Below are positions 6,764 through 60,787 of a DNA stretch of 64,000 bases, piece after piece (within the stretch, counting starts at the first letter, position 1; each line of letters begins with the position of its first letter). Position numbers and translations under genes: made by a program. The DNA is from Candidatus Moraniibacteriota bacterium. GTDB lineage: Bacteria; Patescibacteriota; Minisyncoccia; Moranbacterales; UBA2206. Location of the stretch: the NCBI GenBank assembly GCA_049297495.1, contig JBAQUL010000005.1:3868-67867 (forward strand), written 5' to 3'. The notes beneath the pieces are model-generated. The model saw only the letters and a program-made list of their open reading frames with translations. It did no database searches and was not told the origin of the DNA.

Positions 6764-6840
6764 TGGCGGGGACGGCCGGACTCGAACCGGTGACCTACTG
6801 CGTGACAGGCAGTCGCTCTAACCAACTGAGCTACGCCCCC
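6764..6840 (-). tRNA. tRNA-Asp (GTC), CCA encoded
   Basis: The reverse complement folds as a cloverleaf: GGGGGCG/TA/GCTC-AGTTGGTTA-GAGC/G/ACTGC-CTGTCAC-GCAGT/AGGTC/ACCGG-TTCGAGT-CCGGC/CGTCCCC/GCCA. The anticodon loop CTGTCAC gives anticodon GTC. Confidence 0.85.
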
Positions 6841-6866
6841 AATGTATTATTCTATTTTAAATTTAC

Positions 6867-6922
6867 ACCTACTGCGTGGCAGTCCGCCGGCTGGCGGATC
6901 TAACCAACTGAGCTACGCCCCC
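6867..6922 (-). pseudogene. tRNA fragment: 5' half of the tRNA-Asp sequence fused to a GC hairpin, with no T-arm
   Basis: The reverse complement starts GGGGGCGTAGCTCAGTTGGTTAGA (identical to the tRNA-Asp 5' part), then the hairpin TCCGCCAGCCGGCGGA, then CTGCCACGCAGTAGGT. There is no T-arm or 3' acceptor strand. The same hairpin type recurs at 10543-10558. Confidence 0.6.
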
Positions 6923-7001
6923 AAATTGTATTATGTATCTGGTATTTAGTATCAAGTATTCATACAACATACTAGATACCTTATACTAAATACTATTTTT
7001 G

Positions 7002-7075
7002 TAGCAGGAGTGAGACTCGAACTCACGACCTCAACGTTATGAGTGTTGCGCTCTAACCGGCTGAGCTATCCTGCC
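7002..7075 (-). tRNA. tRNA with CAT anticodon (elongator Met or Ile2-type)
   Basis: Reverse complement GGCAGGA/TA/GCTC-AGCCGGTTA-GAGC/.../CTCATAA/.../GTGAG-TTCGAGT-CTCAC/TCCTGCT/A. C11:G24 indicates an elongator tRNA. One 31:39 mismatch was seen. Confidence 0.7.
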
Positions 7076-7091
7076 ATTTTAATCAATCATT

Positions 7092-7769
7092 TCAAGCAGC
7101 TTCGCCGAGAGCTTTCATCAAACCCATAATCTCATAGAACAATTCCGAACTTTTTGCGATTCTTATGCACAGCGTTCCATAATGCTGAAAATGATTTTCG
7201 TAAACTTTTTTATTTTCTGTTTTTATTAAAATCGGCTTTCTGAACTGCTTAACCGATACTCCTGTTATATTTGACCAATATCTATCAACTTCGCGCAATC
7301 TTTCCTTGTGAATTTCGTTTATTGCAACATGCATGGCAAATCTTTCATTTGGAATATGCAACGCTTCCCTAAACCATCTCATGGCAAATTTAACAATCAG
7401 CTGATCTGAATTATAGAATCTTACCCTTGGATCTCTCTTGCTCCCCTCTCCCCAATATAAAGCAAGTCCAGCAATAAGCAGCTCCCTCTTTTTCAGAGCA
7501 ACAATCTCTTTTCTTCCTTTTTCTATGTACTGTTCTATTTTTTGTAGTTTCCTGTTTTTTTGAGACAACGCTCCTTTCATGCGCCCTTCGTACCCGCCCC
7601 TCACCATTTTAACATGCAATTTTTTAATTTGTGCAACAGATAAGATAATATCCGAACACCAAACACTAACAGAACTCTTAGATACCTCGAGTTCTTTTGC
7701 GATGTCTTTGATGCTATAGCCTTTTTTTCTCAGGCCACGTGCTGCTACTATTTCTTTTGACTTTGCCAT
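7092..7769 (-). CDS. LAGLIDADG-family homing endonuclease with an N-terminal HTH
   Basis: 225 aa. N-terminal HTH (GYSIKDIAKELEVSKSSVSVW) followed by the motif LIAGLALYWGEGSKR, which is the LAGLIDADG signature. It sits between tRNA genes. Confidence 0.75.
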   Translation of the reverse strand: MAKSKEIVAARGLRKKGYSIKDIAKELEVSKSSVSVWCSDIILSVAQIKKLHVKMVRGGYEGRMKGALSQKNRKLQKIEQYIEKGRKEIVALKKRELLIAGLALYWGEGSKRDPRVRFYNSDQLIVKFAMRWFREALHIPNERFAMHVAINEIHKERLREVDRYWSNITGVSVKQFRKPILIKTENKKVYENHFQHYGTLCIRIAKSSELFYEIMGLMKALGEAA

Positions 7770-7835
7770 GGACTCCCCCTATATGGTTATACTATAATTA
7801 TACGGGAAGTTCTAAAATCAATCAACCTTATTATG

Positions 7836-7907
7836 TTGCGGGACCAGGATTCGAACCTGGAACCTTCTGGTTATGAGCCAGACGAGCTGCCATTGCTCCA
7901 TCCCGCT
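7836..7907 (-). tRNA. tRNA-Met (CAT), probably the initiator tRNA-fMet
   Basis: Reverse complement AGCGGGA/TG/GAGC-AATGGCA-GCTC/G/TCTGG-CTCATAA-CCAGA/AGGTT/CCAGG-TTCGAAT-CCTGG/TCCCGCA/A. The 1:72 A-A mismatch and A11:U24 are initiator hallmarks. The anticodon stem lacks the 3xGC run, so the initiator call is tentative. Confidence 0.7.
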
Positions 7908-18926: not shown

Positions 18927-19712
18927 CTAAAATAAGTTCAGATACCAGCCCACAATTGGAACATAGTAGAAAAGAGCAAAAAATGTCCCAATAATCAAAA
19001 ATGGAGCAAAAGGAAGTTGACTCTTCATCTCTTTCTTCTTCATTCCAATAAGAATTATACCATAAATAGCACCAATTGCGAAAGCTAGAAAAAGCCCCAG
19101 AAGAATTCTTGGCCAACCCAAAATAAACCCAAGCAGGATAACGAGATAGGCGTCACCCATTCCCATCCATTTTTCCTTTGAGAAATAGGACAAGGAGAAA
19201 AAAAACAAAAATGCACCTCCACCAGCCATAATTCCAGAAACTGCCATTCGTTCCCAGACAGTTGAAAATGTTTGCCCAAAATCAAAATAAACATTGAAAA
19301 TCAAGACCAAAATGATTGCTGGCCAAAGAATCAAATTGGGAATTTCCATGTACAAAATGTCATAGATAAAAATTACCAAAAGAGCGCTAACGAGAGCAAG
19401 CATCACGCCAGTAATCAGCCAGGTCGCAGGATCTTCTAGTCTAAAATATTGATTTGCTAAAAGCGCAAAAACAACGCCCGTGAGCAACTCCACTAAAGGA
19501 TACTGCCAAGAAATTTTTTCTCCACACTCACGACATTTAAATTTCAGAAGGACAAAACTCAAAACCGGGATATTATCATACCAACGAATAGTTTTTTTGC
19601 ATTTTCGACAATGAGAACGCCCCATTATCGTTTCTGCCGTACGAATACGATAAATAACAACATTAAGAAAACTACCAATAATCAGACCGAAAAGAAAAAA
19701 AATGATAAGCAT
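18927..19712 (-). CDS. pilD: prepilin peptidase / N-methyltransferase (A24 family)
   Basis: 261 aa, polytopic membrane protein with CRKC...CREC zinc motifs in the first cytoplasmic loop and the layout of the A24 peptidase family. Confidence 0.85.
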   Translation of the reverse strand: MLIIFFLFGLIIGSFLNVVIYRIRTAETIMGRSHCRKCKKTIRWYDNIPVLSFVLLKFKCRECGEKISWQYPLVELLTGVVFALLANQYFRLEDPATWLITGVMLALVSALLVIFIYDILYMEIPNLILWPAIILVLIFNVYFDFGQTFSTVWERMAVSGIMAGGGAFLFFFSLSYFSKEKWMGMGDAYLVILLGFILGWPRILLGLFLAFAIGAIYGIILIGMKKKEMKSQLPFAPFLIIGTFFALFYYVPIVGWYLNLF

Positions 19713-19773
19713 TATTTTTGGATTAATTTTTTATTCAAACGCCATTAGTACTGCCCGTTTTCAACTAAAAAAC

Positions 19774-19803
19774 TCATTACCTCATCACAAAATCTCATGT
19801 CAA
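19774..19803 (-). promoter_or_regulatory. candidate sigma70-type promoter upstream of pilD
   Basis: Minus-strand TTGACA (19798-19803), an 18-nt spacer, then TAATGA (19774-19779). Confidence 0.25.
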
Positions 19804-19858
19804 GAATAGCATAATTCTTGTGGTAGGGCAAACTCTATTTCTCTATTCTACCATTATA

Positions 19859-20650
19859 TTATTTTTTATTTCTCAAGATAATCACATAACTTTCAGTGAA
19901 GCTGGCATAATACTTGGCATAAATTTCCTGAACAACCGCCCTACCACTAATTTTGAACAATATAAACGAGACTAGCAAAGCAACATTGTCAATCACAAGA
20001 GCCAATAAATTATTCATAACAAATAATGGAAAAAGCCAATATTTCGATCCGGGCAAATAATGCAAGAAATTATTCCAAAGAATTATGAGAGTTTTGAGGT
20101 AACCACTAAGTGGAACAATCCTAATCACCTCGAAACCTTTAAACAATTCTCTGAGACCATATTGAGTGAACCGATAATAATCATGCGGAATCTCATGTTC
20201 AGGAAAAGTCAGTGGCACCGAAATAAAAATCAGTCCTCCATTTTTAACAACCCGCCTAATCTCTCCAATGGTCTCTTGTATTTTTGATGTATGCTCCAAT
20301 ACTTGAGTCGAGATCAAAGCGTCAAATTCACTCTCTCCAAAAGGAAGCTCCCAATTAAACCCAAAAAAATCCGCTTTACTGTCCTGACTAACATCAAAAC
20401 CAACATACGCGTTTACTTTTGGGAATAGAGCTTGGTACGGTTTCGCTCCGCAACCCAGATCAAGAATTTTTCCAACCTTCTCCCGTTCAAGCATCCCAGA
20501 AAAAATCTTCACCTCTCCAAGTAATGCCCGAAGGCTTAAATATGCCCACTGCCATATTCGCGGAGTCGTTCTCTCAGAAATAATTTCCTTAACAGTTTTT
20601 TTCACAACTAAACCTTTGCATATCTCAATATCGATTGTATTATTTTGCAT
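19859..20650 (-). CDS. class I SAM-dependent methyltransferase
   Basis: 263 aa; motif I ILDLGCGAKPY and a methyltransferase-11/12-like fold. Confidence 0.75.
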   Translation of the reverse strand: MQNNTIDIEICKGLVVKKTVKEIISERTTPRIWQWAYLSLRALLGEVKIFSGMLEREKVGKILDLGCGAKPYQALFPKVNAYVGFDVSQDSKADFFGFNWELPFGESEFDALISTQVLEHTSKIQETIGEIRRVVKNGGLIFISVPLTFPEHEIPHDYYRFTQYGLRELFKGFEVIRIVPLSGYLKTLIILWNNFLHYLPGSKYWLFPLFVMNNLLALVIDNVALLVSFILFKISGRAVVQEIYAKYYASFTESYVIILRNKK

Positions 20651-40123: not shown

Positions 40124-42613
40124 ATGACCAGAAAAAAAATCGACAAAAGAATGCCTCACTTGGAACCGAGCTTTCATGATATTTTGATTTGCAAAAAAAA
40201 TGATTGTCGCCCATTTATTGAAATACTAATCGAAGAACCAGAAAATATTTCACATCATAATCTGGGGACGCTGATGGGAATTTTCCAGATCGACGACAGA
40301 AGCGAGGATTCCTCCTATGTTGTGAATTACCTAATTTCCATCATTAAGAAAGAATATTTTTCCCGCGCCAATCGTGGTCCCGTTGAAAACTTTGAATCAG
40401 CTCTACACAAGGCCAACCTTGCCCTCGCCAAACTTGCCACGCATGAAAATATTGGCTGGATTGGGAGCATCAATGCTATTTGCGCTGTAATTGAAAAAAA
40501 TAATATTCTCCTCTCTCAAACCGGAAATGCCTCAGCTTTTCTTTTGCGCGGAAACACCTTCACCGAAATTACTGAAATTCAAGATGGAACTATCGATTCC
40601 AACCCCCTAAAAACGTTTCAGGACGTCATTTCAGGAAAAATCGAAAAAAATGACAAGCTACTACTCACTACGAAAGAAATTTTTGACATTTTTTCCCTGG
40701 AAGAAATCAAAAAAAGCGCACTCAAATTTTCACGTGAAAATTTCATCCAATTCCTAAATACCGCACTCGTCAACGAACTTGACCAGGTAGCCTCTCTCGT
40801 TATCGACATAGACGAAAAAACTGATGAGTTCCCCGAAACCCCACCAACTCCAAGAAGAGAAGATGTGAATGTTTTTAGTCAAACTGCCTTTCAAAAAGAA
40901 CTTTCTCCTAAAATATTAGAGAAAGAAAGGGCTAAGGAAGATATCTTGAGAAAAGAGCGGCAAGAAATAATCCAAGAGCTCAAAGATGAGGCAAAAGATT
41001 TTGTCGATAAAAAAACTGGACATATCTACATAAAAGAAGCTCACAATGCGCCCAAAGAAGCTCAGATTGAAAAAATTGAATTCGACCCACTCCCCTTTTT
41101 CAAGGAAAAATTCTCTGGCTTAAGACACTCTAGTGCAAAACTGCTCAAAAATGCAACAAGCATACTAAAAGATCAATCTGCTTCACTTTGGGAGAAAAGC
41201 CGCGCTAAAATCTCTCAAATTAAAGTTAAAAAAACTCCTCCAGAAATTGAGTTTTTAGACCGAAAGACTGAAAAAATCGATGAACCAAACACAGTCTTCG
41301 CTCAGACTGAGCCAGAAATCACCCCACTAGAAAGATTAAGCCATGCATATTCCAAACTAGAAATCAAAGCAAGAACCGAATCACTTGTAAAAAAAATCAA
41401 GCCAGGATTTGAATGGTTAGAAGAAAAAACTGCTGATGGATTAATTCTTATCCTGAGAAAGCCCACCAATCTCACCATACAATTGATTGAATCGCTGAAA
41501 AACAAATGGCGCAACCACAAAATTAAAAACCAAACCGAAATAAAGACCCAAGGATACCCCTGGGAAAACTCACCGGTCTCGTCTGACATAGGCCTCCAAA
41601 AAATCGCGACAACACCTCTGCAAAAAACCACAAATCTCGGTCAATTCATCGAGCCCAAGAAAATCCTGCCAAATTTTTCTCGTCTGAAACAAATCTCCAA
41701 AAGCCTTGATCGAAAACAAAAGCTATCAGCTTTGGCAGCGTTAGTTCTTCTTTTGGTTGTCCCATATTGGATCGTAAAATTAGAAAACAGAGAAATCGAG
41801 AAAAAACCGGAAATTGTCGAAGAAATCCCCGCAGTCATACTGCCACTGGAAAATGACTTGAACGTCCAACGCATTGAAAAACTAAACGAGATCTACGGCG
41901 GAAGTGTCTCGCGAATCATAAATCTCAACGATAAATTTTTCGCCCAAAAAGACTCCGAGATTATTGAGCTGGAAACGAAGAAAAGTTTTCCCCTTTCTCC
42001 AGATTTCCAAAATCCGGAATTATCGCTCGGAATGGACGATTTGAATTTAATTTTCATTGTTAAGAACAATAAAATCATATCCCTCGCGCCTACTTCAGGA
42101 AAATTCCAAGCCAATTCCATTGCGTTTCCCGAAAAAGCTAAAATAGCTGATGCCAAGACCTATCTTACCTATCTTTATTTGCTCGATGGAGCAAATAACC
42201 AGATCTATCGCTACCCAAGAGCTGAAGGCGGATTTGGCGAAAAAAACACCTGGCTAAAAGAACCTCTAGATCTATCCAATGCCAAAAGCCTCGCCATTAA
42301 TGAAAATATCTTCATTATAAATGGCCAAAGTATCATCAAATTATTTCGCGGAAAGAATCAGCCCTACATGCTGGAAAAAACCGCAACGCCCATCTCGCCA
42401 GATAAACTCAGTACCCAAAATGCTAGCACCAACCTATACATCCTAGATAAAACTAACTCGAGAATAATAAAACTGGACGGTGAGGGAAAAATTCTGGCCC
42501 AATACTATAATGCGGAAATCACCAACGCAACTGATTTTTCCGTCAGTGAAGAAAATAGCTTGGTTTATATCTCAGATACAAATGGAGTAAAAAGCTTCGC
42601 AATGAATCAATAG
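40124..42613 (+). CDS. large hypothetical protein with a mid-protein TM segment; the N-terminal domain weakly resembles PP2C/SpoIIE
   Basis: 829 aa; coiled-coil region, a TM helix around aa 535 (LSALAALVLLLVVPYWIV), and a C-terminal beta-rich domain. Confidence 0.45.
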   Translation: MTRKKIDKRMPHLEPSFHDILICKKNDCRPFIEILIEEPENISHHNLGTLMGIFQIDDRSEDSSYVVNYLISIIKKEYFSRANRGPVENFESALHKANLALAKLATHENIGWIGSINAICAVIEKNNILLSQTGNASAFLLRGNTFTEITEIQDGTIDSNPLKTFQDVISGKIEKNDKLLLTTKEIFDIFSLEEIKKSALKFSRENFIQFLNTALVNELDQVASLVIDIDEKTDEFPETPPTPRREDVNVFSQTAFQKELSPKILEKERAKEDILRKERQEIIQELKDEAKDFVDKKTGHIYIKEAHNAPKEAQIEKIEFDPLPFFKEKFSGLRHSSAKLLKNATSILKDQSASLWEKSRAKISQIKVKKTPPEIEFLDRKTEKIDEPNTVFAQTEPEITPLERLSHAYSKLEIKARTESLVKKIKPGFEWLEEKTADGLILILRKPTNLTIQLIESLKNKWRNHKIKNQTEIKTQGYPWENSPVSSDIGLQKIATTPLQKTTNLGQFIEPKKILPNFSRLKQISKSLDRKQKLSALAALVLLLVVPYWIVKLENREIEKKPEIVEEIPAVILPLENDLNVQRIEKLNEIYGGSVSRIINLNDKFFAQKDSEIIELETKKSFPLSPDFQNPELSLGMDDLNLIFIVKNNKIISLAPTSGKFQANSIAFPEKAKIADAKTYLTYLYLLDGANNQIYRYPRAEGGFGEKNTWLKEPLDLSNAKSLAINENIFIINGQSIIKLFRGKNQPYMLEKTATPISPDKLSTQNASTNLYILDKTNSRIIKLDGEGKILAQYYNAEITNATDFSVSEENSLVYISDTNGVKSFAMNQ

Positions 42614-42630
42614 CTAGTATCTTTTAAAAA

Positions 42631-42666
42631 ACAGGAACGGAGCTCATGGCTCGTTCCTGTTTTTTC
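42631..42666 (+). terminator. Rho-independent terminator
   Basis: ACAGGAACGGAGCTCATGGCTCGTTCCTGT followed by TTTTTT, a perfect 11-bp stem. Confidence 0.8.
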
Positions 42667-42685
42667 ATTAGTTTTATTTTTATCT

Positions 42686-42826
42686 CACGACTTACGCGTT
42701 TGTCAAAGAATTATTCGCACGCACAGCCTATTTAGCTGAAAAAGCCTTTGGTAAACCAGCAGTAAATAAACCAAAATGAGGAAGCGTCGCTTTCAAGAAT
42801 AATTATTTGGCAAACACGTAAGTCCT
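42686..42826. mobile_element. MITE-like element copy 1 (about 140 bp with roughly 22-bp terminal inverted repeats)
   Basis: 5' CGACTTACGCGTTTGTCAAAG and 3' TTTGGCAAACACGTAAGTCCT are inverted repeats. Same family as copies at 49543-49690 and 59411-59557. Confidence 0.55.
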
Positions 42827-42861
42827 ATATCTATAAATAACCGACGATAAATAAGCATTTT

Positions 42862-45321
42862 CTAAAATCTCGTCCGGGCGATGATTTCCTGATTGACGAC
42901 ATGTCGATCTCGGCCAAAAGTCAGACGAGACAGCTCCTTGATTGCATTAGCCACTTCCTGATCGCCTCTGGTCGGAGGAAAGCCCTGGATATTGAAAGGT
43001 TTGGTCAGTACGCCGTCAATTAGAACTTTCGCAAACCCTTTGTGATTATCCACATTCACTAAATCATTCTTTGAAAAAGTCGGCGCCACCTGTTTCTCCA
43101 GAAATTCCGCGTCTTCCGGACCGACGCGATAAAGAATCATAGAGCCAATATTGCCAAACACGGCCTTTGAAATCTCTTCCTTGAGTTGAGCGATAAATTG
43201 ATGAGCGATATTGAGACAGAGTCGATATTTTCTCGCTTCGCTGAGAATTTGGGCGATAGAATTGGTTGTCACATTTTGAAACTCATCAAGATAGAGATAA
43301 AAATCCACGCGATCATTCTCTGGAATATTAGTACGCGCAAGCGCTGACATCAAAATTTTTCCCACAATCACCATGCCCAAAAGTCGCGCGTTAATTTCCC
43401 CAATCTTTCCCTTGGAAAGAGCCACGAGTAGGATTTTCTTATTATCCATGATATCGCGAAAATTAATCGTGCTTTTTTGTTGAGAGATAATCGGACGCAT
43501 CATGTCATTGGAAATAAACGGAGTCAGTTTGGAGGTGATATAGGGCACCATATTGGCCAGTGCCGCTTCACCTCCGGCTTTTTCCGCTTCTTTGGTCCAA
43601 AAATCTATCACTGTCTGATTGGTACATTTGGAAAGTTTCATGGCGCGAAAATCCTCATCCGCCATCACCTTGGAAATTTCCATTAAAGTTGATCCTGAAT
43701 CCGGGTCGCTCATCACGAGAAACATCGCATTACGCATATATTGCTCAAACATCGGTCCACCAGTCGCTTTGAGATCATAGAGTTGATCAAAAATGCCAAT
43801 CATTTCGTTGATCACAAAGGTCATCTGCTCCGGATAGGCCGGATCATATTCCAGCATATTAAGCCCAAATGGCCGCTCAACATCCGATGGGTCAAATACA
43901 ACCACATCTTGTGCCCGCTCCTTAGGAATGCAGGCCAAAATATCCTCAATCGCATCGCCATGCGGATCAATAAAGCAAAAGCCCCGCCCTTCCTTGGCAT
44001 CCTGTTTGGCCATTTCTTGCAAGATAGTCGTCTTTCCTGTTCCAGTTTGACCAATCGCATAGAGATGCCGCCTGCGATCACTCTCAGTTAAACGAATATC
44101 CGTCTTTGCTCCACGATATTCATTGAAGCCGATAAGCACGCCTTCCGTAGGAATCCCGACCGGTGGTGGGGCAGCGTTCGCTTTGAGCCATTTAATTTTT
44201 GGTGCTTCGGTGGTGGAGATGGGAATGTGAAAAATACTGGAAATCTCTTCCACACCAAGAATCATTTTTTCTTCCGATTTAAAATTACGGAAAATAAAAT
44301 CAAAAGCAATCACTTTTTTATTTTTTCTTTGCACTTGAAAACAGTTTATATCCGCATTTTCATATTGCGCGAAAGCATTCTCAATATGCGCTAAGATTTC
44401 CTGGGCCCGCTCACTTGTCGCAGCTGACGTTACCAAGCGAATATTGGTTTCAAATCCAGTCTTTGAGGCTTTTTTTTCAATCCCCTTCACCAACTCTTGT
44501 TCTTCTGGAGTAAGCTGCACAGTTTTTTTGTCCCCCGACAGTGGATCATCTTTTTTCCCTGGAGTGATAATGGATAGCGCCGCAGAACCAAGTTCACTTC
44601 CCACTTTTGCCATAAAAGATTTATCCACGTCACGTAGTCTTTTCCCTTGCTGCATCTCGTGAGCGATGCGCCGCCCTTCCGCCCGCCAAGCTGTCCCAGC
44701 TGGACGCAAGACCAATTGGATAGCTGCTCCCTCGCTTACCGTGTCAAGCTTGCTGAGTGCATTAGCAATAGCATTCAGTGGATCCATTTCTTGATTTTCA
44801 TAGGTACGAATCGGCAAAGCAAATTTATTTTTCAACTTAATAATTGATGCCTCGGTCTTACTCCCAGGAAAGAAAATATTAAAATCGGTTGTCTTTTCCA
44901 AGGATGCATATGGAAAAAAACTATGAATCTGCTTTTCTATATTTTCCCTAAATTTTCTTGGCACCGCAATAAAAAAAACGATTTCCTCATTCTTAGAAGA
45001 ATTGGCAATCTCCAATGAGATTGCGGGTGAGCCATACAGTAATTTTTTGAAAAAACTCCGAGTATCTCTGATTGAGGAAAAAGCCGTGAGCATTTGCTCC
45101 ATCGCTCCAATCTCGCCCTTCCAATTCTCTCCTTCCTTAGTTTTCTCCTCCTCACTCTTATTGATTTTTGAAACGCGAATCACATCAAGATCCAAATTCA
45201 TTGATTGATTAACCTGAGCGCGAAAACCTAAAAAGCTTGACACAACAAGCCAAGCACCACTAAACAAAGTCGCTATTCCTGAGACCAAAAGTACGATATT
45301 AATTAAGCTAGAATAATCCAT
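42862..45321 (-). CDS. TraD/VirD4/TraG-family P-loop ATPase (type IV coupling-protein-like) with an N-terminal TM segment
   Basis: 819 aa; Walker A AIGQTGTGKTT, FIDPHGDA, Walker B YLYLDEFQNV, and the ...NIAHQF motif. Confidence 0.55.
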   Translation of the reverse strand: MDYSSLINIVLLVSGIATLFSGAWLVVSSFLGFRAQVNQSMNLDLDVIRVSKINKSEEEKTKEGENWKGEIGAMEQMLTAFSSIRDTRSFFKKLLYGSPAISLEIANSSKNEEIVFFIAVPRKFRENIEKQIHSFFPYASLEKTTDFNIFFPGSKTEASIIKLKNKFALPIRTYENQEMDPLNAIANALSKLDTVSEGAAIQLVLRPAGTAWRAEGRRIAHEMQQGKRLRDVDKSFMAKVGSELGSAALSIITPGKKDDPLSGDKKTVQLTPEEQELVKGIEKKASKTGFETNIRLVTSAATSERAQEILAHIENAFAQYENADINCFQVQRKNKKVIAFDFIFRNFKSEEKMILGVEEISSIFHIPISTTEAPKIKWLKANAAPPPVGIPTEGVLIGFNEYRGAKTDIRLTESDRRRHLYAIGQTGTGKTTILQEMAKQDAKEGRGFCFIDPHGDAIEDILACIPKERAQDVVVFDPSDVERPFGLNMLEYDPAYPEQMTFVINEMIGIFDQLYDLKATGGPMFEQYMRNAMFLVMSDPDSGSTLMEISKVMADEDFRAMKLSKCTNQTVIDFWTKEAEKAGGEAALANMVPYITSKLTPFISNDMMRPIISQQKSTINFRDIMDNKKILLVALSKGKIGEINARLLGMVIVGKILMSALARTNIPENDRVDFYLYLDEFQNVTTNSIAQILSEARKYRLCLNIAHQFIAQLKEEISKAVFGNIGSMILYRVGPEDAEFLEKQVAPTFSKNDLVNVDNHKGFAKVLIDGVLTKPFNIQGFPPTRGDQEVANAIKELSRLTFGRDRHVVNQEIIARTRF

Positions 45322-45490
45322 AATCTTGAACTATGATTTTTATGATTATCAACAAATTTCAAAATCCTAATATCAAATTTCCAATCAAGTCTTAAATTCA
45401 AATGACAAAATAATTTTCTGGCTTATTTTCTTGGATTTTGAATTTTGGTTTTTGTTTGACATTGAAAATTAGAAATTGAAAATTAATCCT

Positions 45491-45931
45491 TCATTCTTCT
45501 GTTATCATTCCCTTCTTTACCAACGCGTCATGCAAATCTGTCGCCAGGAGTCGATCATGCAATTCGTCAAGCAAATAATTATCCTCCATGTGTTGTGCCA
45601 CCTTGACTGCATGCACAACACCCTTCGCCTCAGCCAATTCGACTAATTTTATAATTTTATTTTCATAATCCGTCCCTTCGCCAGCTATTTTGGCGTCCGT
45701 CGAAACATCATTTTGGGCCACAGGATTCGAACTTTTCACCTTGGCAAGAATCTTGGCATAGGTGTCATCACGCTCCACCTTTCCCTCTTTCCTTTCCGGC
45801 GCTTCTGGGGTAGGAATAACTTCTGGGTCATCCTTGGGCGAACTGGACACAACACTCTTTTCACCCTCGGGACCACCTTTTAAGAATTTATTTTTCAAAT
45901 CCAAATCTCCATCTTCAATTGGCTCTAGCAT
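45491..45931 (-). CDS. acidic hypothetical protein
   Basis: 146-aa ORF, D/E-rich. Confidence 0.4.
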   Translation of the reverse strand: MLEPIEDGDLDLKNKFLKGGPEGEKSVVSSSPKDDPEVIPTPEAPERKEGKVERDDTYAKILAKVKSSNPVAQNDVSTDAKIAGEGTDYENKIIKLVELAEAKGVVHAVKVAQHMEDNYLLDELHDRLLATDLHDALVKKGMITEE

Positions 45932-46102
45932 ACGTTTTAGCTTAATTGTTTATACTGGTTTATCAAAAATATCATTATTTACATCATCCCTTTGAAAAAT
46001 ATAGTCAGTAATTTCCATTTTTTATCCAAAACGCACAGCTTCAATTCGAAAATTAAGAAATTTAAGCATTGTTTGGAAATTGGAAATTGGAAATTTCTCC
46101 CC

Positions 46103-46402
46103 CTACTCCACTTTCTTCATTTCTTCTTTGAAATCAGCAATAATCTTTTGCACCATTTCATCATAATTCAATACCTTTTCCTTCAGAAATTCACCGATTT
46201 TCTCTGGTTCGCTTTTTTCATCAACCATCTTCTCATACATCTCACGATCTGCCTCACTCAATCGCTCCATCGTTTCCACAAAGATTCTTTTCAAAAGCAC
46301 TTCCGTCATTTTAATCAGAATCTCATTTTGCTTATCCAGTGGAAGATTGGAAAGCCCCAATTCTTCCATTAGCTCTTTTTGCAATTGATCTTGATCAACC
46401 AT
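46103..46402 (-). CDS. small hypothetical protein
   Basis: 99-aa helical, E/K-rich ORF. Confidence 0.35.
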   Translation of the reverse strand: MVDQDQLQKELMEELGLSNLPLDKQNEILIKMTEVLLKRIFVETMERLSEADREMYEKMVDEKSEPEKIGEFLKEKVLNYDEMVQKIIADFKEEMKKVE

Positions 46403-46484
46403 TTTATTTTTGTTACCGCCAAATAATTCAGCGAGTAAGATTAATTTTTTAAATTGAACTTTTTTTATTTTTTAGCAAAGAAGC

Positions 46485-49367
46485 CTATTTTCCGCCACGA
46501 TCTAACAACTTAAAGTTTTTATACTCCACGCCACCGGCTTCAAGCGATGATTTGATCATTCTAGTCGTCCAAGAAAACATATTCTCTCCGGGAAGCGGAT
46601 TGGAAAAATTAGTTCCAAATTGTTTAGCAACGTATCCTTTTAATTCCACAATCTTTGAGCTCTGCCCATTTTCGCTACCCAAAAATTCGGCCGCCCCAAC
46701 AGCTTTTAGCCCCGCTACTCCACCCTCAATTTGTTGTCCCGCAAAAGTCTCTCTGGCAAGCGAATTAAAGGCCTTGGCGTAGGCTTTTTCATAACCACCT
46801 TTGGCTGATTCGAGCGCTGCCGCCCTTGCGCCACTAACATCATTAGTATCACTTACAGCTCTCGTATACGCCTCTTCCGCCGCAGCCTTTAACCTGCCAA
46901 GATCTAGTAATTCCCCTCTGTGTGATTGCATGGATTCTGGCATCGACTGAATATTTCTCAATATCTCAGCACCACCCTTGCCATACACTTTTTGATATTC
47001 ATTATTTAATTCTTGATGCATGCGATCTCCATCGGCCGAAGCATGTGATTGCGCATTTGAGTTCGGACTACTATTTTCTACACCTTCTTGCGCACGCACA
47101 CCACTATCAACCGAGCTGGAATGAGGTTCCACATCTGGCGCTACACCTGCTGAGACTGGTGCTTCTGGAGTAGGACTGACATCTGGTCCGACTGGCATCA
47201 CTTTTTCGACCGAAGGCTGATGAACTTCCGTTCCTCCTGCAGGCACATCCGGAGTGTTAACATGCGCACCAAGGATGCGGTCCACTTTGACAGTTCCTTT
47301 CTCCCAATCAACAATAACCTTTTGCCCCGGTTTGATTTTACCCAGCTCCTTAAGAGTTTCTTCATTATCAGGATTTGACGCTATCTGATGAGCCAATGTT
47401 TCTGCGTCATGAGGGCTCATGCCTTCTGCAATTTTCTGATTTATCATTATCCTCTCGACACTGTCACCCTTTGCCGCGACATACTCAGAGGCACCTTGCG
47501 CTGATACTGGCGCCTCAACCGAGCTAAACCTATCACCATCAGACGCTCCAGCATGCGTCGCTTCCATTTTTGGATTGAATCTGTCACCATCGGACGCACC
47601 AGCGTGTGTCGCTTCATGAGCAGAATCCGCATGATCAATAGGATTTGTGCCGACTTCAACCGGCGCCGGTTCACTAGCAAAAGCTAATCCTCCAGATTCG
47701 TCTGCGCCGCCCACATTCACATGTTCCCAAAGACTAGTTGCACCATCTTTCATTAGACCAAAACCCTTCCCGATGAGCCACCCTGCTGCCCCCGATCCTA
47801 CAGCAACAGCAACACCCGCCCCGATCAATTTTCTGTTTCTCGCTTGACTCTTCTCTTTTTGCAAACCATCATGATAAGTCTTCATTTCCTTACCACAATA
47901 TTCATTAAGCGCCTGAATATGTTCTTGAAGACTTCTTTCCACATTTCCCATCATCTCATTCTTGTCTTTTCCCGCTTTTTTGTTCACTTTATTCCTTGAA
48001 CGCGCCTCTAGCCCTGCCGTCACACTAGTGCCAAGCACTGCGCCACCAAGCCACCTTCGAACCAGATTAACGCCAGTTACACCAGCCACAGCTACAGCCG
48101 ATCCAGTGAATGCAGCATAACCTCCAGCTGCAAAAAGAGCTACCGCAATACCTGTTTTTATTCTTGGATCCAGCGTACGGTACTTATTAATCAATTCTGC
48201 GCCTATCTTCAAAGCTTTCTCGCCAAATCTTCCCATCTTCGTTTCTGACCAGGATGCTGTTCGCGCATCCGTCCTTGCTCCCGCCAAATCAAGTTTCTCG
48301 GTGAAGCCAAAATATGTTGCCATGTCACCCATCTCTTTTTTCATTTCCGTCATCGCCGCCGCTTTTTCCGCTGGTGGCAAACTATCCATGTTGGCATATT
48401 TATCTCGCATCGCTTGGATTTGCAAATTCCGCAACTCATTTAATGCTCCTTGATATTGCTGATAAGCAAATGAATCTTTGGCGCCAGTTGGCAAATTTTC
48501 AGTCTTCATACCCAGCACACTTTTGAGCTTTGTGAAAATATTCGTTGTTCTATAATCCTCAGCGGCATAACCTTTTCTTTTTTCTTCTACTAAAATTCTC
48601 AGCTCTTCGAGCTTGCCAAGCTTTTCTTTTTCTTCAGGACTATAAGCAGCATCTTTCTCTTCGCCCATCTTAAACCGACCATCATCTTTTTCCTCTATGC
48701 TCTTGCCAATTTTTCTGCCCATATTTTTCCGAGTCTCTCTCTTAGCGTCGGTCTTCTCTTTTTCTCCAGCAGGAATGATATCTCCAATTTCTCCTTGATA
48801 AGCGGCAAAAGCGCCTTCCTGCATCCCATCATCCTCTCTTCTTATAATATCCGCTTCAGGCTTAACACCCTCAGCTTTTTTCTTGCCAGTATCGCCAGTC
48901 TCTTCTTGGTAGGCCGCAAAAGCGCTTTCTTGCATTTCATCATCCTCTCTTCTGATGATATCTGCCTTCGCATCAATACCTTTCGAGACTGGATCAGTTT
49001 TTGTCCCACTTTCAACATCCTCCACCTGATAAGCTGCGAAAGCATTTTCTTGCATATCATCACCATCTCTTCTGATGTGATCCATCTTTGCATCAATACC
49101 CTTTGAGACTGGATCAGTCACCATCTTCTGCGCATCCTCTCCTTGGTAGGCCGCAAAAGCGCTTTCTTGCATTTCATCACCTTTTTTTCTAATCATATCC
49201 GCTTCCGTATCGACACCCACGTGTTTTTTTTCACCGCCAGCCATTCCCGCTTTTGCCCTAGCAAGTTCAAGCCGCTTTCTTTTTTCCTCAGTTTGAGGGA
49301 ACTCAATTATTTTATTTTTCTTAACCCCAGGTTTGGTCTCTGGCTTAAATGCAAAACTTTCCTTCAT
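46485..49367 (-). CDS. large membrane protein with about 5 tandem 27-aa repeats, Gly/Ala-rich TM helices and a LysM-like C-terminal segment
   Basis: 960 aa; repeats DPVSKGIDAK.D.IRR.(G/E)D(D/E)MQE.AFAAYQ (81-bp DNA tandem repeats at about 48770-49120); TM helices TGIAVALFAAGGYAAFTGSAVAVAG and LIGAGVAVAVGSGAAGWLIG; LysM-like ...GDSVERIM...LGKIKPGQKVIV. Confidence 0.6.
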   Translation of the reverse strand: MKESFAFKPETKPGVKKNKIIEFPQTEEKRKRLELARAKAGMAGGEKKHVGVDTEADMIRKKGDEMQESAFAAYQGEDAQKMVTDPVSKGIDAKMDHIRRDGDDMQENAFAAYQVEDVESGTKTDPVSKGIDAKADIIRREDDEMQESAFAAYQEETGDTGKKKAEGVKPEADIIRREDDGMQEGAFAAYQGEIGDIIPAGEKEKTDAKRETRKNMGRKIGKSIEEKDDGRFKMGEEKDAAYSPEEKEKLGKLEELRILVEEKRKGYAAEDYRTTNIFTKLKSVLGMKTENLPTGAKDSFAYQQYQGALNELRNLQIQAMRDKYANMDSLPPAEKAAAMTEMKKEMGDMATYFGFTEKLDLAGARTDARTASWSETKMGRFGEKALKIGAELINKYRTLDPRIKTGIAVALFAAGGYAAFTGSAVAVAGVTGVNLVRRWLGGAVLGTSVTAGLEARSRNKVNKKAGKDKNEMMGNVERSLQEHIQALNEYCGKEMKTYHDGLQKEKSQARNRKLIGAGVAVAVGSGAAGWLIGKGFGLMKDGATSLWEHVNVGGADESGGLAFASEPAPVEVGTNPIDHADSAHEATHAGASDGDRFNPKMEATHAGASDGDRFSSVEAPVSAQGASEYVAAKGDSVERIMINQKIAEGMSPHDAETLAHQIASNPDNEETLKELGKIKPGQKVIVDWEKGTVKVDRILGAHVNTPDVPAGGTEVHQPSVEKVMPVGPDVSPTPEAPVSAGVAPDVEPHSSSVDSGVRAQEGVENSSPNSNAQSHASADGDRMHQELNNEYQKVYGKGGAEILRNIQSMPESMQSHRGELLDLGRLKAAAEEAYTRAVSDTNDVSGARAAALESAKGGYEKAYAKAFNSLARETFAGQQIEGGVAGLKAVGAAEFLGSENGQSSKIVELKGYVAKQFGTNFSNPLPGENMFSWTTRMIKSSLEAGGVEYKNFKLLDRGGK

Positions 49368-49542
49368 TTTGTTGTTTCTAATTTTTTATAAATATTAAAA
49401 AGATAACTGTGACTTTCACTTGTTTAAATTATACAACAAAAAAACAATTCTTGCTACAAGACAAATAACTTCCTGCTGTGGATAACGTAAAAATATGATA
49501 TACTAATCTTACAATGAATTTAAAGATTAAAAAAAATGATCA

Positions 49543-49690
49543 GGACTTACGCGTTTGCCAAAAATAAGCTTTTCCATAGCCGGGGTTGATTAAAAAAAGC
49601 TTTGGTAGTTTTGGGCGTTAAGATAAACAAAAAACAAACTCTAAGTAACCACGCGCTTTAAAGATTGTTTTTGGTAAATGCGTAAGTCCT
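49543..49690. mobile_element. MITE-like element copy 2
   Basis: TIRs AGGACTTACGCGTTTGCCAAAAA and TTTTTGGTAAATGCGTAAGTCCT; about 75% identical to copy 3 over the whole element. Confidence 0.6.
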
Positions 49691-49716
49691 AATAATAAAA
49701 TAAATATATTAAACCT

Positions 49717-51573
49717 ATGTCAATCCAAAAATTTTTGGAAAAAAACTACAAGCTAGTTATTGGAATCATCCTCGCCTTCATCTTTACGGTTTCCGTCCTG
49801 AACGCTTGGTGGGACAGCGCCATTTTCGATGAAACTGCCCACATCCCTGCCGGCTATTCCTACCTGACAATGCATGACATGCGCCTTAATCCGGAACATC
49901 CACCCCTCCTGAAAGATCTTGCCGCATTTCCTTTGCTTTTTTTAAATTTAAACTTTGATACCACGCAAAATTTCTGGACCACCGATATTAACGGTCAATG
50001 GGTGGCCGGTCACAATCTTTTTTGGCTGAATGGTAACAATTCCGATCTGCTTATTTTTTGGGCGCGCATTCCTTTTGTCCTTCTTTCTCTGCTTTTTGGT
50101 CTGTTTATTTTCAAATGGAGCAAAGAACTCGCAGGAACGCTTGGCGGACTCCTTGCTCTAACCCTCTATGCCTTTGATCCAAACATCTTGGGCCATAACC
50201 ATTTCGTTACAACCGACCTCGGTATTGCCGGATTCATGATGCTGTCCTTTTATTATTTTTTGAAATTCATCAAAGATCCTTCCTGGAAAAATGTCACACT
50301 CGGCGGACTCTTCCTCGCCCTTGTCCAGCTGACGAAATTTTCCTCCATCATGCTCTTTCCAATCTTCGGTCTTGTCGCAGTTATCTACCCCTTGGTTAAA
50401 AAAATTCCCGCCGAAGAAAAGAGTGCTTGCCTTTTTAAACTAAAAAAAATAGGAGAATACTTGGGAAAAAGCATTGTCGCTCTCACTTTTTCGCTCCTGA
50501 TTGTTTGGCTATTTTATGCCTTCAATAATTTCGATATGCCAAAAGAAAAATTAGCTGAAACAATCAACTTCTATTTCACTCCCACAGACACAGAAAACGT
50601 CAAAAATATCTACACCAATAAAGTCCTTCTTGCTCTCAATGAGACAGCCCTGTTTCGTCCGTTATCAGAATATTTCCTTGGTATCGCCATGGTGTTTAAA
50701 AGAGTGGCGGGTGGCAATGGCGCCTACTTCATGGGCCAAGTTTCCAATGCTGCCTTTCCGGCCTATTTCCCAACAGTTTTCGCCCTAAAAGAGCCACTGA
50801 TTATCCTACTGCTCATGCTATTTGCTGCCGTTATCGGTTTTTGGAACAATCTTAAAGCGTTTTTTGATCGTTTCAAGGAATCCGCTCAAAAATCCCCATG
50901 GCTCACGGCGCTTAGCGACTACCTGAGACACAACATTGAAATCCTAGCAATGTTCGCCTTTATCCTGCTCTATGCCTACATCAGCATCACCGGAAATCTC
51001 AATATTGGCTTTCGCCATCTCTTCCCAATCTTGCCTTTTGCCTACATCCTTACTGCCAAAATCATCATCGATTTTTGCGAAAAAAGAAAAAATCTTCCCG
51101 CAAAAATACTATCCTTGTCAATCGTACTTATCTTTTCATTGCTACTTATTATTGAAACTGTGACTGCCTACCCCTATTACATGTCGTATTTCAATCAAAC
51201 CGCTGGCGGACCGAAAAATGGCTATAATTTTGTCACAGATTCCAATGCTGATTGGGGACAAGACCTAAAAAGATTGCAACCCTTCCTTGATGAGCACCCG
51301 GAAATTGATAAAATCCGTGTTGATTATTTTGGTGGAGCAGATATAAAATACTACGTCAAAGATAAATATATCATGTGGTATGACTCCAAACGTCCCCTAG
51401 AAGCTGGCTGGTATGCCATTTCAACCAATTTCCTTCAAGGCAGCATCTATGACGCAACAAAAAAAGACCAAACTACTTATCGCTGGACTCAAAAACTTAA
51501 ACCCCAATATCAAGTAGGAACATCTCTACTCATCTATCACGTCAGTGAGAATGATTTGAAAAACTTGAACTAA
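49717..51573 (+). CDS. GT-C family membrane glycosyltransferase (ArnT/PMT-like, GT39/83-type)
   Basis: 618 aa; the first loop carries the DE motif (AIFDETAHIPAGY), about 12 TM helices, and a C-terminal soluble domain. Confidence 0.65.
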   Translation: MSIQKFLEKNYKLVIGIILAFIFTVSVLNAWWDSAIFDETAHIPAGYSYLTMHDMRLNPEHPPLLKDLAAFPLLFLNLNFDTTQNFWTTDINGQWVAGHNLFWLNGNNSDLLIFWARIPFVLLSLLFGLFIFKWSKELAGTLGGLLALTLYAFDPNILGHNHFVTTDLGIAGFMMLSFYYFLKFIKDPSWKNVTLGGLFLALVQLTKFSSIMLFPIFGLVAVIYPLVKKIPAEEKSACLFKLKKIGEYLGKSIVALTFSLLIVWLFYAFNNFDMPKEKLAETINFYFTPTDTENVKNIYTNKVLLALNETALFRPLSEYFLGIAMVFKRVAGGNGAYFMGQVSNAAFPAYFPTVFALKEPLIILLLMLFAAVIGFWNNLKAFFDRFKESAQKSPWLTALSDYLRHNIEILAMFAFILLYAYISITGNLNIGFRHLFPILPFAYILTAKIIIDFCEKRKNLPAKILSLSIVLIFSLLLIIETVTAYPYYMSYFNQTAGGPKNGYNFVTDSNADWGQDLKRLQPFLDEHPEIDKIRVDYFGGADIKYYVKDKYIMWYDSKRPLEAGWYAISTNFLQGSIYDATKKDQTTYRWTQKLKPQYQVGTSLLIYHVSENDLKNLN

Positions 51574-59292: not shown

Positions 59293-59410
59293 TGATTTAG
59301 CTTTAAAATATTATATCTCGCCCATATATCGACTATACACTAAACAAGGCTTTAAAGCAACCTTTATTAGAAGAGACGCTCCATAGTGGAGCGTCTCTTT
59401 TTATAAATAC

Positions 59411-59557
59411 AGGACTTACGCGTTTGCCAAAAACAAGCTTCCCTATAGCCAAGATTGGCCTGGAAAATTTCAGCAGTCTCGAGAGCTAAAAGAAGCAAAA
59501 GCAAGCTCTGGGCAGTCATGCGCTTTGAAGATTGTTTTTGGTGAACGCGTAAATCAT
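59411..59557. mobile_element. MITE-like element copy 3
   Basis: AGGACTTACGCGTTTGCCAAAAA ... TTTTTGGTGAACGCGTAAATCAT; internal similarity to copy 2 (AAGCTTCCCTATAGCC.., GCGCTTTGAAGATTGTTTTTGG). Confidence 0.6.
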
Positions 59558-59569
59558 TAAAAACTAAAA

Positions 59570-60787
59570 TTAATTCATCACCCGCTCATAATTATCTGCC
59601 CAATATAGCACTTTTTCACCATAATTGACACCTTTTGAATCGCAATATGCTGACCAATTGCCACCAGCTAAATACACGCAATAGGCCTTGGCTTCAGCGG
59701 ATTTCTTATGCTCCTTTACGCCGTCAACCTTTGTAAGTTTTATAGCCATTGCCACAACACCATCAGTCAGATCCCAGGGATCAGGCGGATTATGCCCGGT
59801 CACTGAAGCAATTGAACTTTTGTACCCGGCCCAAGTATCGGACATAAACTGCGCCACACCCATTGCGCCACCAGTCCCCTTGTATCCGGAAGGTGGACAA
59901 GAAACTTTTCTTTTTTTCCATTCATAATCCAGCTCACTGCAAATAGTTTTAAATATCCCCAAGCGATAACTACTCATATTGCTTTTATCGGCAGTACAAC
60001 CACCAGTATATCTTCCCAGATTAGATTCTACCACCAAAACACCCAGCAGATAATCTTTTCTAATTCCCGTTTTTTTAGCAGCAAAGGCCGCTGCATCTGT
60101 CACATTCTTAAAGCTGACTGAACTGGATAATAAGCTCGATAATTCACTTTTCAATTTATCAATTTTGGCGTTAAGTTCCGACAATGTGGCTTGCGCCTCT
60201 TTAATGTCAGTTTTTATCTCTACTTGTTGTCCTTGCTGAATAGCCACTAATTTCTCATGATCTTCTTTTTTTTCAGCAAGCTCTTCTTTCGTCTTGGAAA
60301 CATCTTCTTTGGCCTTTTTAATCTCACCAAGAGTGAGCACTATCTTTTCTTTCACATTTAAAATTTGATCGAAATCTCCTGACATCCCATAATCCCTAGT
60401 ATCACCCAAAAGTAAGCCCGAAAGAGGGTCCTCGTCGGCATAATAAGCTTCGAGGATATAGCCCTCTAGTATTTCACGATTCAATTTTATTCGCTGATTA
60501 AGGTTGTTAACTTCAATCTCCTTTCTTCCGATTTCACTCTGCGTTTTTTGCAATAAATTTTTTGTCACCCCCAACTCCGCATTCTTTTTTTGAAGCAATG
60601 TTTGAGAAGTATTCAGTTCTTTTTTCACTTTCTCAGCCTTACTTTGCACTTTTTCAATATCATCCTTAATGTCTTCTGCATCATCTGCCGCAAAAGCCTT
60701 TTCCTGATAAATCTTAAAATCAAAAACAACTAACCAGACCACGAAAATGGCTAACGCTAAATTTTTTATTATTCTTTGATAATTCAT
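59570..60787 (-). CDS. coiled-coil protein with a C-terminal lytic transglycosylase (MltB/SLT_2-like) domain
   Basis: 405 aa; N-terminal TM segment, a long coiled coil, and a C-terminal ...GTGGAMGVAQFMSDTW... resembling the MltB G.MQFMP.TW motif. Confidence 0.55.
   Translation of the reverse strand: MNYQRIIKNLALAIFVVWLVVFDFKIYQEKAFAADDAEDIKDDIEKVQSKAEKVKKELNTSQTLLQKKNAELGVTKNLLQKTQSEIGRKEIEVNNLNQRIKLNREILEGYILEAYYADEDPLSGLLLGDTRDYGMSGDFDQILNVKEKIVLTLGEIKKAKEDVSKTKEELAEKKEDHEKLVAIQQGQQVEIKTDIKEAQATLSELNAKIDKLKSELSSLLSSSVSFKNVTDAAAFAAKKTGIRKDYLLGVLVVESNLGRYTGGCTADKSNMSSYRLGIFKTICSELDYEWKKRKVSCPPSGYKGTGGAMGVAQFMSDTWAGYKSSIASVTGHNPPDPWDLTDGVVAMAIKLTKVDGVKEHKKSAEAKAYCVYLAGGNWSAYCDSKGVNYGEKVLYWADNYERVMN

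Follow-up and report, generated by a model that had tools for sequence, protein, structure and literature searches.

Three hairpin repeats in a 64-kb stretch of DNA from a Candidatus Moraniibacteriota bacterium (the whole stretch is here called the window, and the coordinates of the copies refer to it) are very probably non-autonomous miniature inverted-repeat transposable elements (MITEs) that bear the ends of a 1,073-bp, ISAba11-like insertion sequence (IS) of the IS701 family. A MITE origin had been put forward in a preliminary description of the window, with a structured small RNA family as the alternative, and it is supported by further copies, by 5-bp target-site duplications, by a cognate IS and by the lack of any Rfam match. 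The MITEs and the IS have their ends in common, the duplications stand in one exact register and the IS occurs in related Patescibacteria; among relatives each window copy can be followed as present or absent, and old copies have decayed in a near-neutral manner. Genomes of the Candidate Phyla Radiation (CPR) are ~1 Mb in size and are usually described as streamlined and repeat-poor. MITEs occupy ~0.7% of the window, and CPR genomes thus still carry proliferating selfish DNA.

Copies in the window and their boundaries

The three copies and the duplications that border them are as follows.

42681-42685: left 5-bp target-site duplication of copy 1, TATCT
42686-42827, + strand: MITE copy 1, subfamily A, 142 bp, CACGACTTACGCGTTTGTCAAAGAATTATTCG ... 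GAATAATTATTTGGCAAACACGTAAGTCCTA
42828-42832: right 5-bp target-site duplication of copy 1, TATCT, a perfect match
49536-49540: left target-site duplication of copy 2, ATGAT
49541-49691, + strand: MITE copy 2, subfamily B, 151 bp, downstream of a conserved -10 region and ahead of the start codon (ATG, 49717) of a GT39 glycosyltransferase gene
49692-49696: right target-site duplication of copy 2, ATAAT, a 4/5 match
59405-59409: left target-site duplication of copy 3, AAATA
59410-59558, + strand: MITE copy 3, subfamily B, 149 bp, with the degenerate right end GTAAATCATT and a right boundary that is good to +/-1 nt
59559-59563: right target-site duplication of copy 3, AAAAA, a 4/5 match, its register ambiguous by 1 nt owing to the decayed right end

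Alignment of the copies together with their flanks gives a conserved block that spans CAGGACTTACG to CGTAAGTC(C/A)TA, and element ends of the form 5'-CAGGACTTACGCG...CGCGTAAGTC(C/A)TA-3', with 5'-(C/T)AGGACTTACGCGTTTGCC...GG(C/T)AAACGCGTAAGTC(C/A)TA-3' as the MITE end consensus. Conservation reaches 2 nt further at each side than in the preliminary description and the spans have been refined to match; the left arm of copy 1 starts with CACGACTT and not with AGGACTT, and what had been taken for a 22-bp terminal inverted repeat is a paired stem of ~30 bp. The 22-mer GGACTTACGCGTTTGCCAAAAA, with up to 3 mismatches allowed, has five matches in the window and none in 100 dinucleotide-preserving shuffles. 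Copies 1 and 2 are each matched at both ends and copy 3 at its left arm alone, its right arm, TTTTTGGTGAACGCGTAAATCAT, being too degenerate. A profile hidden Markov model built from the three copies gives exactly three full-length matches and no other credible match in the 64 kb, and so the presence of three hairpin repeats at the places originally pointed out is borne out. Their terminal hairpins have predicted energies of -44.6 to -55.5 kcal/mol, with z scores of -5.5 to -5.9 relative to shuffles.

End to end, copies 2 and 3 are 73% identical (about 75% had been estimated), and copy 1, noted from the start as the more divergent, has similarity to the other two that is confined to the arms. 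Copy 1 falls in a separate subfamily, A, members of which are 141-143 bp long, and copies 2 and 3 are in subfamily B, with lengths of 149-152 bp. All three are intergenic, non-coding and in the same orientation on the + strand, as first described, with no open reading frame (ORF) of at least 80 aa overlapping any of them. The longest stop-free stretches are of 30-49 codons, and among the 29 copies now known in the window and its relatives none is overlapped by an ORF of at least 110 aa.

When the boundaries are placed at CAGG...C(C/A)TA, a 5-bp duplication is evident in the ~24 independent insertions that these copies represent, with a mean match of 4.04 of 5 positions and with perfect identity in 9 of the 24. 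All other combinations of offsets give matches of 1.2-3.5 of 5 and 0-2 perfect pairs, and random re-pairing of left and right flanks gives 0.4 perfect pairs on average and a maximum of 4 in 10,000 trials. The length is therefore 5 bp in a single exact register, where the preliminary description had left a range of lengths to be checked. The targets are rich in A and T, and 19 of the 24 have A at position 2.

The cognate insertion sequence and the copies in relatives

The further copies come from a scan with the arm pattern GACTTACGYRTTTRYCAAANA, which returned 39 loci from 185,579 species-representative genomes and 57 further loci from Joint Genome Institute (JGI) metagenomes. In these collections the genomes nearest to that of the window belong to other Moraniibacteriota, with 87-90% identity for the best match, and the family counts are accordingly those of the window plus relatives. 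About a quarter of the scanned loci are single-arm chance matches in unrelated taxa; the remainder come from Moraniibacteriota, Parcubacteria, Falkowbacteria or unclassified 'MAG: bacterium' assemblies, where MAG stands for metagenome-assembled genome. With the arm pattern, 14 full MITE copies were found in Moraniibacteriota MAGs and more in metagenomes, and profile searches of the scanned loci, after removal of duplicates, gave the 29 copies and ~24 independent insertions already mentioned, drawn from both genomes and metagenomes of relatives, so that copies outside the window, the first thing to be looked for, do exist. Every one of the 29 is intergenic, and dispersed copies have unrelated flanks (flank identity about 0.5). 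Besides A and B there are extra subfamilies with different interiors (L061, L079 and L102; L numbers designate individual loci). In viral contigs, 12 single-arm matches to the pattern were considered and set aside, their number fitting chance and none of them matching the element profile.

Two features of the wider set of copies can be recorded here. The right end of the element tends to be near a gene boundary (median ~14 nt) and the left end farther from one (median ~40 nt) across the 29 copies, which may reflect a preference for target or orientation, or may be chance in compact genomes. There are also mini-derivatives of 40-55 bp (L022:3789-3833; L045:5786-5835; L081, ~8308 on the - strand; L088, ~2128) in which the left arm runs on almost at once into the last ~12 nt of the right arm (TAGGACTTACGCATTTACCAAATACGTAGGTCATA is one of them); these may be internal deletions or excision footprints.

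Many matches in JAURXY, JBAQNP and several metagenomes cover no more than the opening ~25 nt of the profile and are situated ~110-140 nt from the end of a contig, and all of these continue into one common sequence, which is the IS. The complete IS at L019:5099-6170 is 1,073 bp long including a leading T, is bounded by TAGGACTTACGCGTTTG...CAAACGCGTAAGTCCTA and has a single ORF of 322 aa whose stop codon is within the terminal repeat. With the NCBIfam model NF049921, 'IS701 family transposase', the product reaches 366.7 bits, above the cut-off of 250, and it has Pfam matches to DDE_Tnp_1 (3.3e-14) and DDE_5 (4.9e-14). In related Patescibacteria MAGs and metagenomes the inventory comes to 7 full-length copies and ~25 fragments, with transposases from 95% down to 50% identical and the same end kept in all, and the copy in L076 is flanked by a perfect ATCGT/ATCGT. 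A full-length transposase-bearing element with the terminal inverted repeats of the MITEs, for which a search had been proposed, is thus to be found in relatives.

The two ends of the IS diverge from each other after nt 17, and both are represented in the MITEs. The MITE left arm, GACTTACGCGTTTGCCAAA (…TTTGCCAAA), is the IS end that carries the transposase stop codon, and the subfamily-B right arm, TTTTGGTAAACGCGTAAGTC (TTTTGGTAAACGCG…), is the transposase-start end of the L014-type IS. Because the arms copy two unequal IS ends, there is a constant G·T (G·U) mismatch between them.

We infer that the MITEs have been mobilised in trans by an ISAba11-like transposase and that an active IS is, or formerly was, present in the window's own genome. 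The 322-aa DDE transposase would be supplied by a full-length IS in the same cell and would bind both MITE ends through recognition of the conserved terminal ~12-17 nt and then move or copy the MITE, with integration expected into an AT-rich 5-bp target that would be duplicated upon insertion.

Small intergenic elements with inverted repeats are known in other bacteria, among them RUP and BOX of Streptococcus pneumoniae and ERIC of enterobacteria, with RUP, which has a TA duplication, thought to be mobilised in trans by IS630-Spn1. These differ from the elements in the window in their termini, duplication length and IS family, and there is no sequence similarity. The Correia elements (CREE) of Neisseria are MITEs of 100-155 bp that have long terminal inverted repeats, are abundant in intergenic DNA and are co-transcribed with neighbouring genes as long hairpins; they have TA duplications, IHF sites and promoter elements and, to our knowledge, no known cognate transposase.

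Among characterised elements, ISAba11 is the one most closely related to the parent IS. The transposase of the latter is just 35-36% identical, over 94% of the length, to the 'IS701-like element ISAba11 family transposase' of Acinetobacter plasmids (tblastn), and the inverted repeats diverge beyond nt 12-13, the hosts being Gammaproteobacteria in one case and the Patescibacteria (CPR) lineage in the other. Yet the first 12 nt are identical (TAGGACTTACGC...GCGTAAGTCCTA), both have a single DDE transposase ORF with its TAA stop inside the terminal repeat (GCGTAAGTCC), and both have an AT-rich 5-bp target duplication. The sizes are also close, since ISAba11 in Acinetobacter pittii pNDM-AP_882 (L123:259-1359) is 1,101 bp long compared with 1,073 bp, with termini TAGGACTTACGCA...TGCGTAAGTCCTA and flanks TATAG/TATAG. 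The element in the CPR is therefore of the same kind as a clinically studied Acinetobacter IS, and its terminal 12 nt are conserved across phyla. For the same pNDM-AP_882 insertion a 'characteristic 5-bp direct repeat' has been reported (PMC7885321). Acinetobacter also provides an instructive parallel at the level of MITEs, in that MITEAba12 is mobilised by ISAba12 and its transposition has been seen experimentally (PMC6382973). It is ~113 bp long and non-coding, has terminal inverted repeats in common with a co-resident IS, has a duplication length equal to that of its IS and prefers AT-rich targets (PMC6382973). The proportion of copies with intact duplications, ~40%, is likewise comparable to the 9 of 24 here (PMC6382973). 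It differs in having IS5-type termini, GGCTTTGTTGCA, and 9-bp duplications, and in that its mobility is experimental, whereas here mobility is deduced from comparative data only (PMC6382973). In the searchable literature no description was found of MITEs in CPR/Patescibacteria, nor of MITEs derived from an IS701-family IS or from ISAba11. From the perspective of bacterial MITEs in general, the family is ordinary in kind and brings nothing conceptually new.

Filled sites, empty sites and decay

Syntenic loci of relatives were reached through orthologues of the GT39 protein. Resolution of empty sites is near base level for copy 2 only, and for copies 1 and 3 what is seen is absence from diverged intergenic DNA. 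The copy 2 site is empty in L110, from JBAXPY ELA543 (a genome 78-90% identical to the window), which is 86% identical at the locus, and in L113 (79%). In both, an AATATG(A/C)TATACT motif is followed after ~47-49 nt by the ATG with no MITE between, and deletion of copy 2 together with one ATAAT from the window restores alignment with them. ELA543 has a MITE of its own at another position, upstream of the GT39 promoter, which is an independent insertion.

An orthologue of copy 1 is at the same place, 88% identical, in CAIZXS bin-1411 (L032), which is syntenic to window 40983-48867 at ~87% identity. Copy 1 is absent from the syntenic intergenic region of ~100 bp in L113, a region too diverged for an exact junction. 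Copy 3 is absent in L118 and L120, where 160 bp and 78 bp, respectively, separate MurA from the gene that follows, compared with 277 bp in the window, and the ~20-kb syntenic stretches of L116-L121 have no MITE.

Where copies have been retained, they have drifted with their surroundings. Four orthologous MITE pairs are 88-97% identical compared with 86-98% for their 120-nt flanks, and the stem in L032 has three uncompensated changes in one arm that take the predicted fold from -44.6 to -27.5 kcal/mol. Presence and absence of the MITEs could serve as a marker for strain and species history in this uncultured lineage, and recognition of them is useful for annotation and assembly.

Some larger differences are seen in the same comparisons. 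L046/L055 was considered as a further empty site and rejected, as its synteny with the window is broken by a 3.9-kb insertion that precludes base-level comparison. This extra DNA of ~3.9 kb in ELA543 (L055:6588-10518, the same as in L046) is flanked by the orthologues of window genes 18927-19712 and 19859-20650, and so corresponds to window 19712-19858; within it are a MITE of subfamily A, whose AACCT duplication is perfect, and what seem to be small accessory genes. Near copy 2, L110:3088-5454 and L113:7808-9995 have two genes (~292 and ~306 aa) that separate the large upstream gene from the GT39 promoter; these are missing at window 49497-49540, and a deletion or insertion of ~2 kb must therefore also have occurred there.

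Contig ends are another place where the elements are met. In the Logan assembly of the window's genome, a contig starts at window 49658, inside copy 2. Contigs that start in a MITE or the IS are L109:1-37, L021, L037, L044, L048, L050, L099 and L100, and those that end in one are L020, L040, L042 and L049. Repeats of this type therefore fragment CPR metagenome assemblies.

Competing explanations, gene context and possible host effects

Several observations weigh against the MITE interpretation, or at least against its simplest form. The ~100-nt MITE interior is unrelated to the IS interior, no transposase is encoded in the 64-kb window, and co-occurrence of IS and MITE was seen only at the level of a sample (Ga0172379). 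Perfect duplications border just one of the six full-length IS copies for which both flanks are available, with none at the other five, perhaps because metagenome assemblies contain chimeric joins at a multicopy IS. Between non-orthologous MITE copies identity does not exceed 88%, and so the sampled insertions are old and no recent movement is seen. A simple model also leaves unexplained both an excess of covariation in the stem, considered below, and concerted arm changes in two copies with subfamily-B interiors, L028:7150-7298 and L110:5209-5359. In these, both arms are altered together at positions 11-17, GCGTTTGCC having become GCCAACCCC or GCCTACCCC with the terminal GACTTAYGC retained; the variant arms are GACTTATGCCAACCCCAAA, and GACTTACGCCTACCCCGAA with GATTTATGCCCATCTCAAA, and the arms of L028 are identical to each other at 27 of 28 positions. 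The ordinary explanation is that the two copies are chimeras with an IS subgroup that has not been seen.

It is very improbable that the repeats are structured small RNAs or cis-regulatory RNAs whose long closing stem is conserved for RNA function and that they are not mobile DNA, though the folding is strong (z about -5.5 to -5.9). RNAalifold on 17 subfamily-B copies yields a consensus terminal stem of 26 + 6 pairs, in which 95.5% of positions pair and 11 pairs have double-sided changes, more than in any of 500 column shuffles or any slid register. This covariation is not evidence for an RNA, because both arms must fit the same transposase and the copies stem from few masters, and the conserved structure is the terminal stem alone, the central ~70 nt being without any. 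The + strand folds better in 24 of the 29 copies, the mismatches being G-U on that strand, and is more stable than its complement by ~6 kcal/mol on average; yet this is so regardless of the direction of neighbouring genes, and the advantage is equally strong where the - strand is the one transcribed (L030, L036). Strand-specific selection on RNA was accordingly rejected, as the G/T asymmetry of the arms is already present in the two parent IS ends, from which the + strand folding bias is partly inherited. Orientation with respect to co-directional flanking genes is mixed (9 sense, 5 antisense), there are 5-bp target-site duplications, the sites are empty in relatives, and orthologues drift as their flanks do with stems that decay without compensation. 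At the Rfam gathering score, three tRNAs were the only matches in the window, and even at E ≤ 10 no family was matched by the repeats, which gave just sub-threshold chance matches, the best at 20.8 bits against a gathering score of 211. We conclude that the elements are not maintained as RNA genes, and of the two possibilities originally offered it is the small RNA family that is disfavoured.

It is highly unlikely, too, that each copy is an IS remnant left in place by deletion of the interior and never transposed as a miniature unit. The ends are indeed IS ends, and remnants of 40-55 bp do exist (L022, L045, L081, L088), but the ~100-nt interior is common to unrelated loci and genomes (73-88% identity) and is unlike that of the IS. 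The common interior implies spread as miniature units from few masters, giving subfamilies A and B. An origin as palindromes of the repetitive extragenic palindrome (REP) or bacterial interspersed mosaic element (BIME) type, mobilised by RAYT, a Y1 transposase of IS200/IS605 type, is scarcely credible. Short intergenic palindromic repeats close to terminators would be in keeping with it, but at ~145 bp the elements are far larger than REPs, their termini are identical to those of an IS with a DDE transposase, and they have 5-bp duplications, none being made in Y1 transposition; the duplications and the cognate DDE IS in effect refute it.

Acceptance of the elements as MITEs leaves room for selection on the arms themselves. 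That arm complementarity beyond the ~12-nt core for transposase recognition is under selection or is actively homogenised is unlikely, but is raised because of the concerted changes at 5-7 positions in L028 and L110, the covariation above shuffles and the + strand preference (24/29). If so, the hairpin might be needed as single-stranded DNA or a cruciform for transposition, or an RNA hairpin might have been co-opted for mRNA processing in genomes as reduced as these.

The last of these leads to the genes around the copies. The window has 40.6% G+C and encodes a VirD4/TrwB-like ATPase, a PMT_2 (GT39) glycosyltransferase and MurA, along with many proteins that have no Pfam match. Its GT39 protein is identical to one annotated by NCBI in a Candidatus Moraniibacteriota MAG. 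Features next to the copies are as follows.

42632-42665: hairpin CAGGAACG..CGTTCCTG with an A-run and a T-run flanking it, read by eye and partly picked up by a terminator scan; probably a bidirectional terminator, judging from its sequence, of the convergent genes 40124-42613 (+) and 42862-45321 (-)
49496-49504, + strand: putative extended -10 element TGATATACT of the GT39 gene (49717-51573), upstream of copy 2, the motif being kept in L110 and L113
59372-59402: hairpin AGAGACGCTCCA-TAG-TGGAGCGTCTCT with a 12-bp stem, then a T-run; a putative terminator

Copy 1 is between the first of these hairpins and the stop codon (42862) of the VirD4-like gene on the - strand, and copy 3 is between the other hairpin and the - strand gene 59570-60787, whose stop codon is at 59570; L120 has a similar hairpin, AGAGACGC..GCGTCTCT, at the equivalent place. 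Copy 2 is 37 nt downstream of the conserved -10 element and 25 nt upstream of the GT39 ATG, which, given the putative promoter, would place it in the GT39 5' untranslated region (UTR). Scans for consensus promoters and terminators around the three copies gave no excess over shuffles and failed to pick up hairpins that can be recognised by eye.

All three copies would be expected to add to mRNAs a double-stranded hairpin of ~30 bp and -45 to -55 kcal/mol. By analogy with the Correia elements of Neisseria, such hairpins could be substrates for double-strand-specific RNases and so alter mRNA processing or stability, and several copies, as long hairpins in the UTRs of cell-envelope and secretion genes (for the GT39 glycosyltransferase, the VirD4-like ATPase and a transglycosylase-like protein), are candidates for effects on expression. 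A stronger version, in which some copies have been co-opted and are kept by the host as RNase III sites, mRNA stabilisers or attenuators, is compatible with their being MITEs, to which it would add a function, but is improbable. The placement of copy 2 between a conserved -10 element and the ATG, and of copies 1 and 3 between a stop codon and a hairpin, is consistent with it, as are the retention of copy 1 in two species that are 87% identical and the general precedent of the Correia elements. Orthologous copies are, however, conserved no better than their flanks, the stem in L032 has decayed, and close relatives have kept the genes with no MITE at the corresponding sites.

The three tRNA genes in the window are on the - strand within 6767-7907, at 6767-6840, 7002-7075 and 7836-7907, and are unrelated to the repeats.

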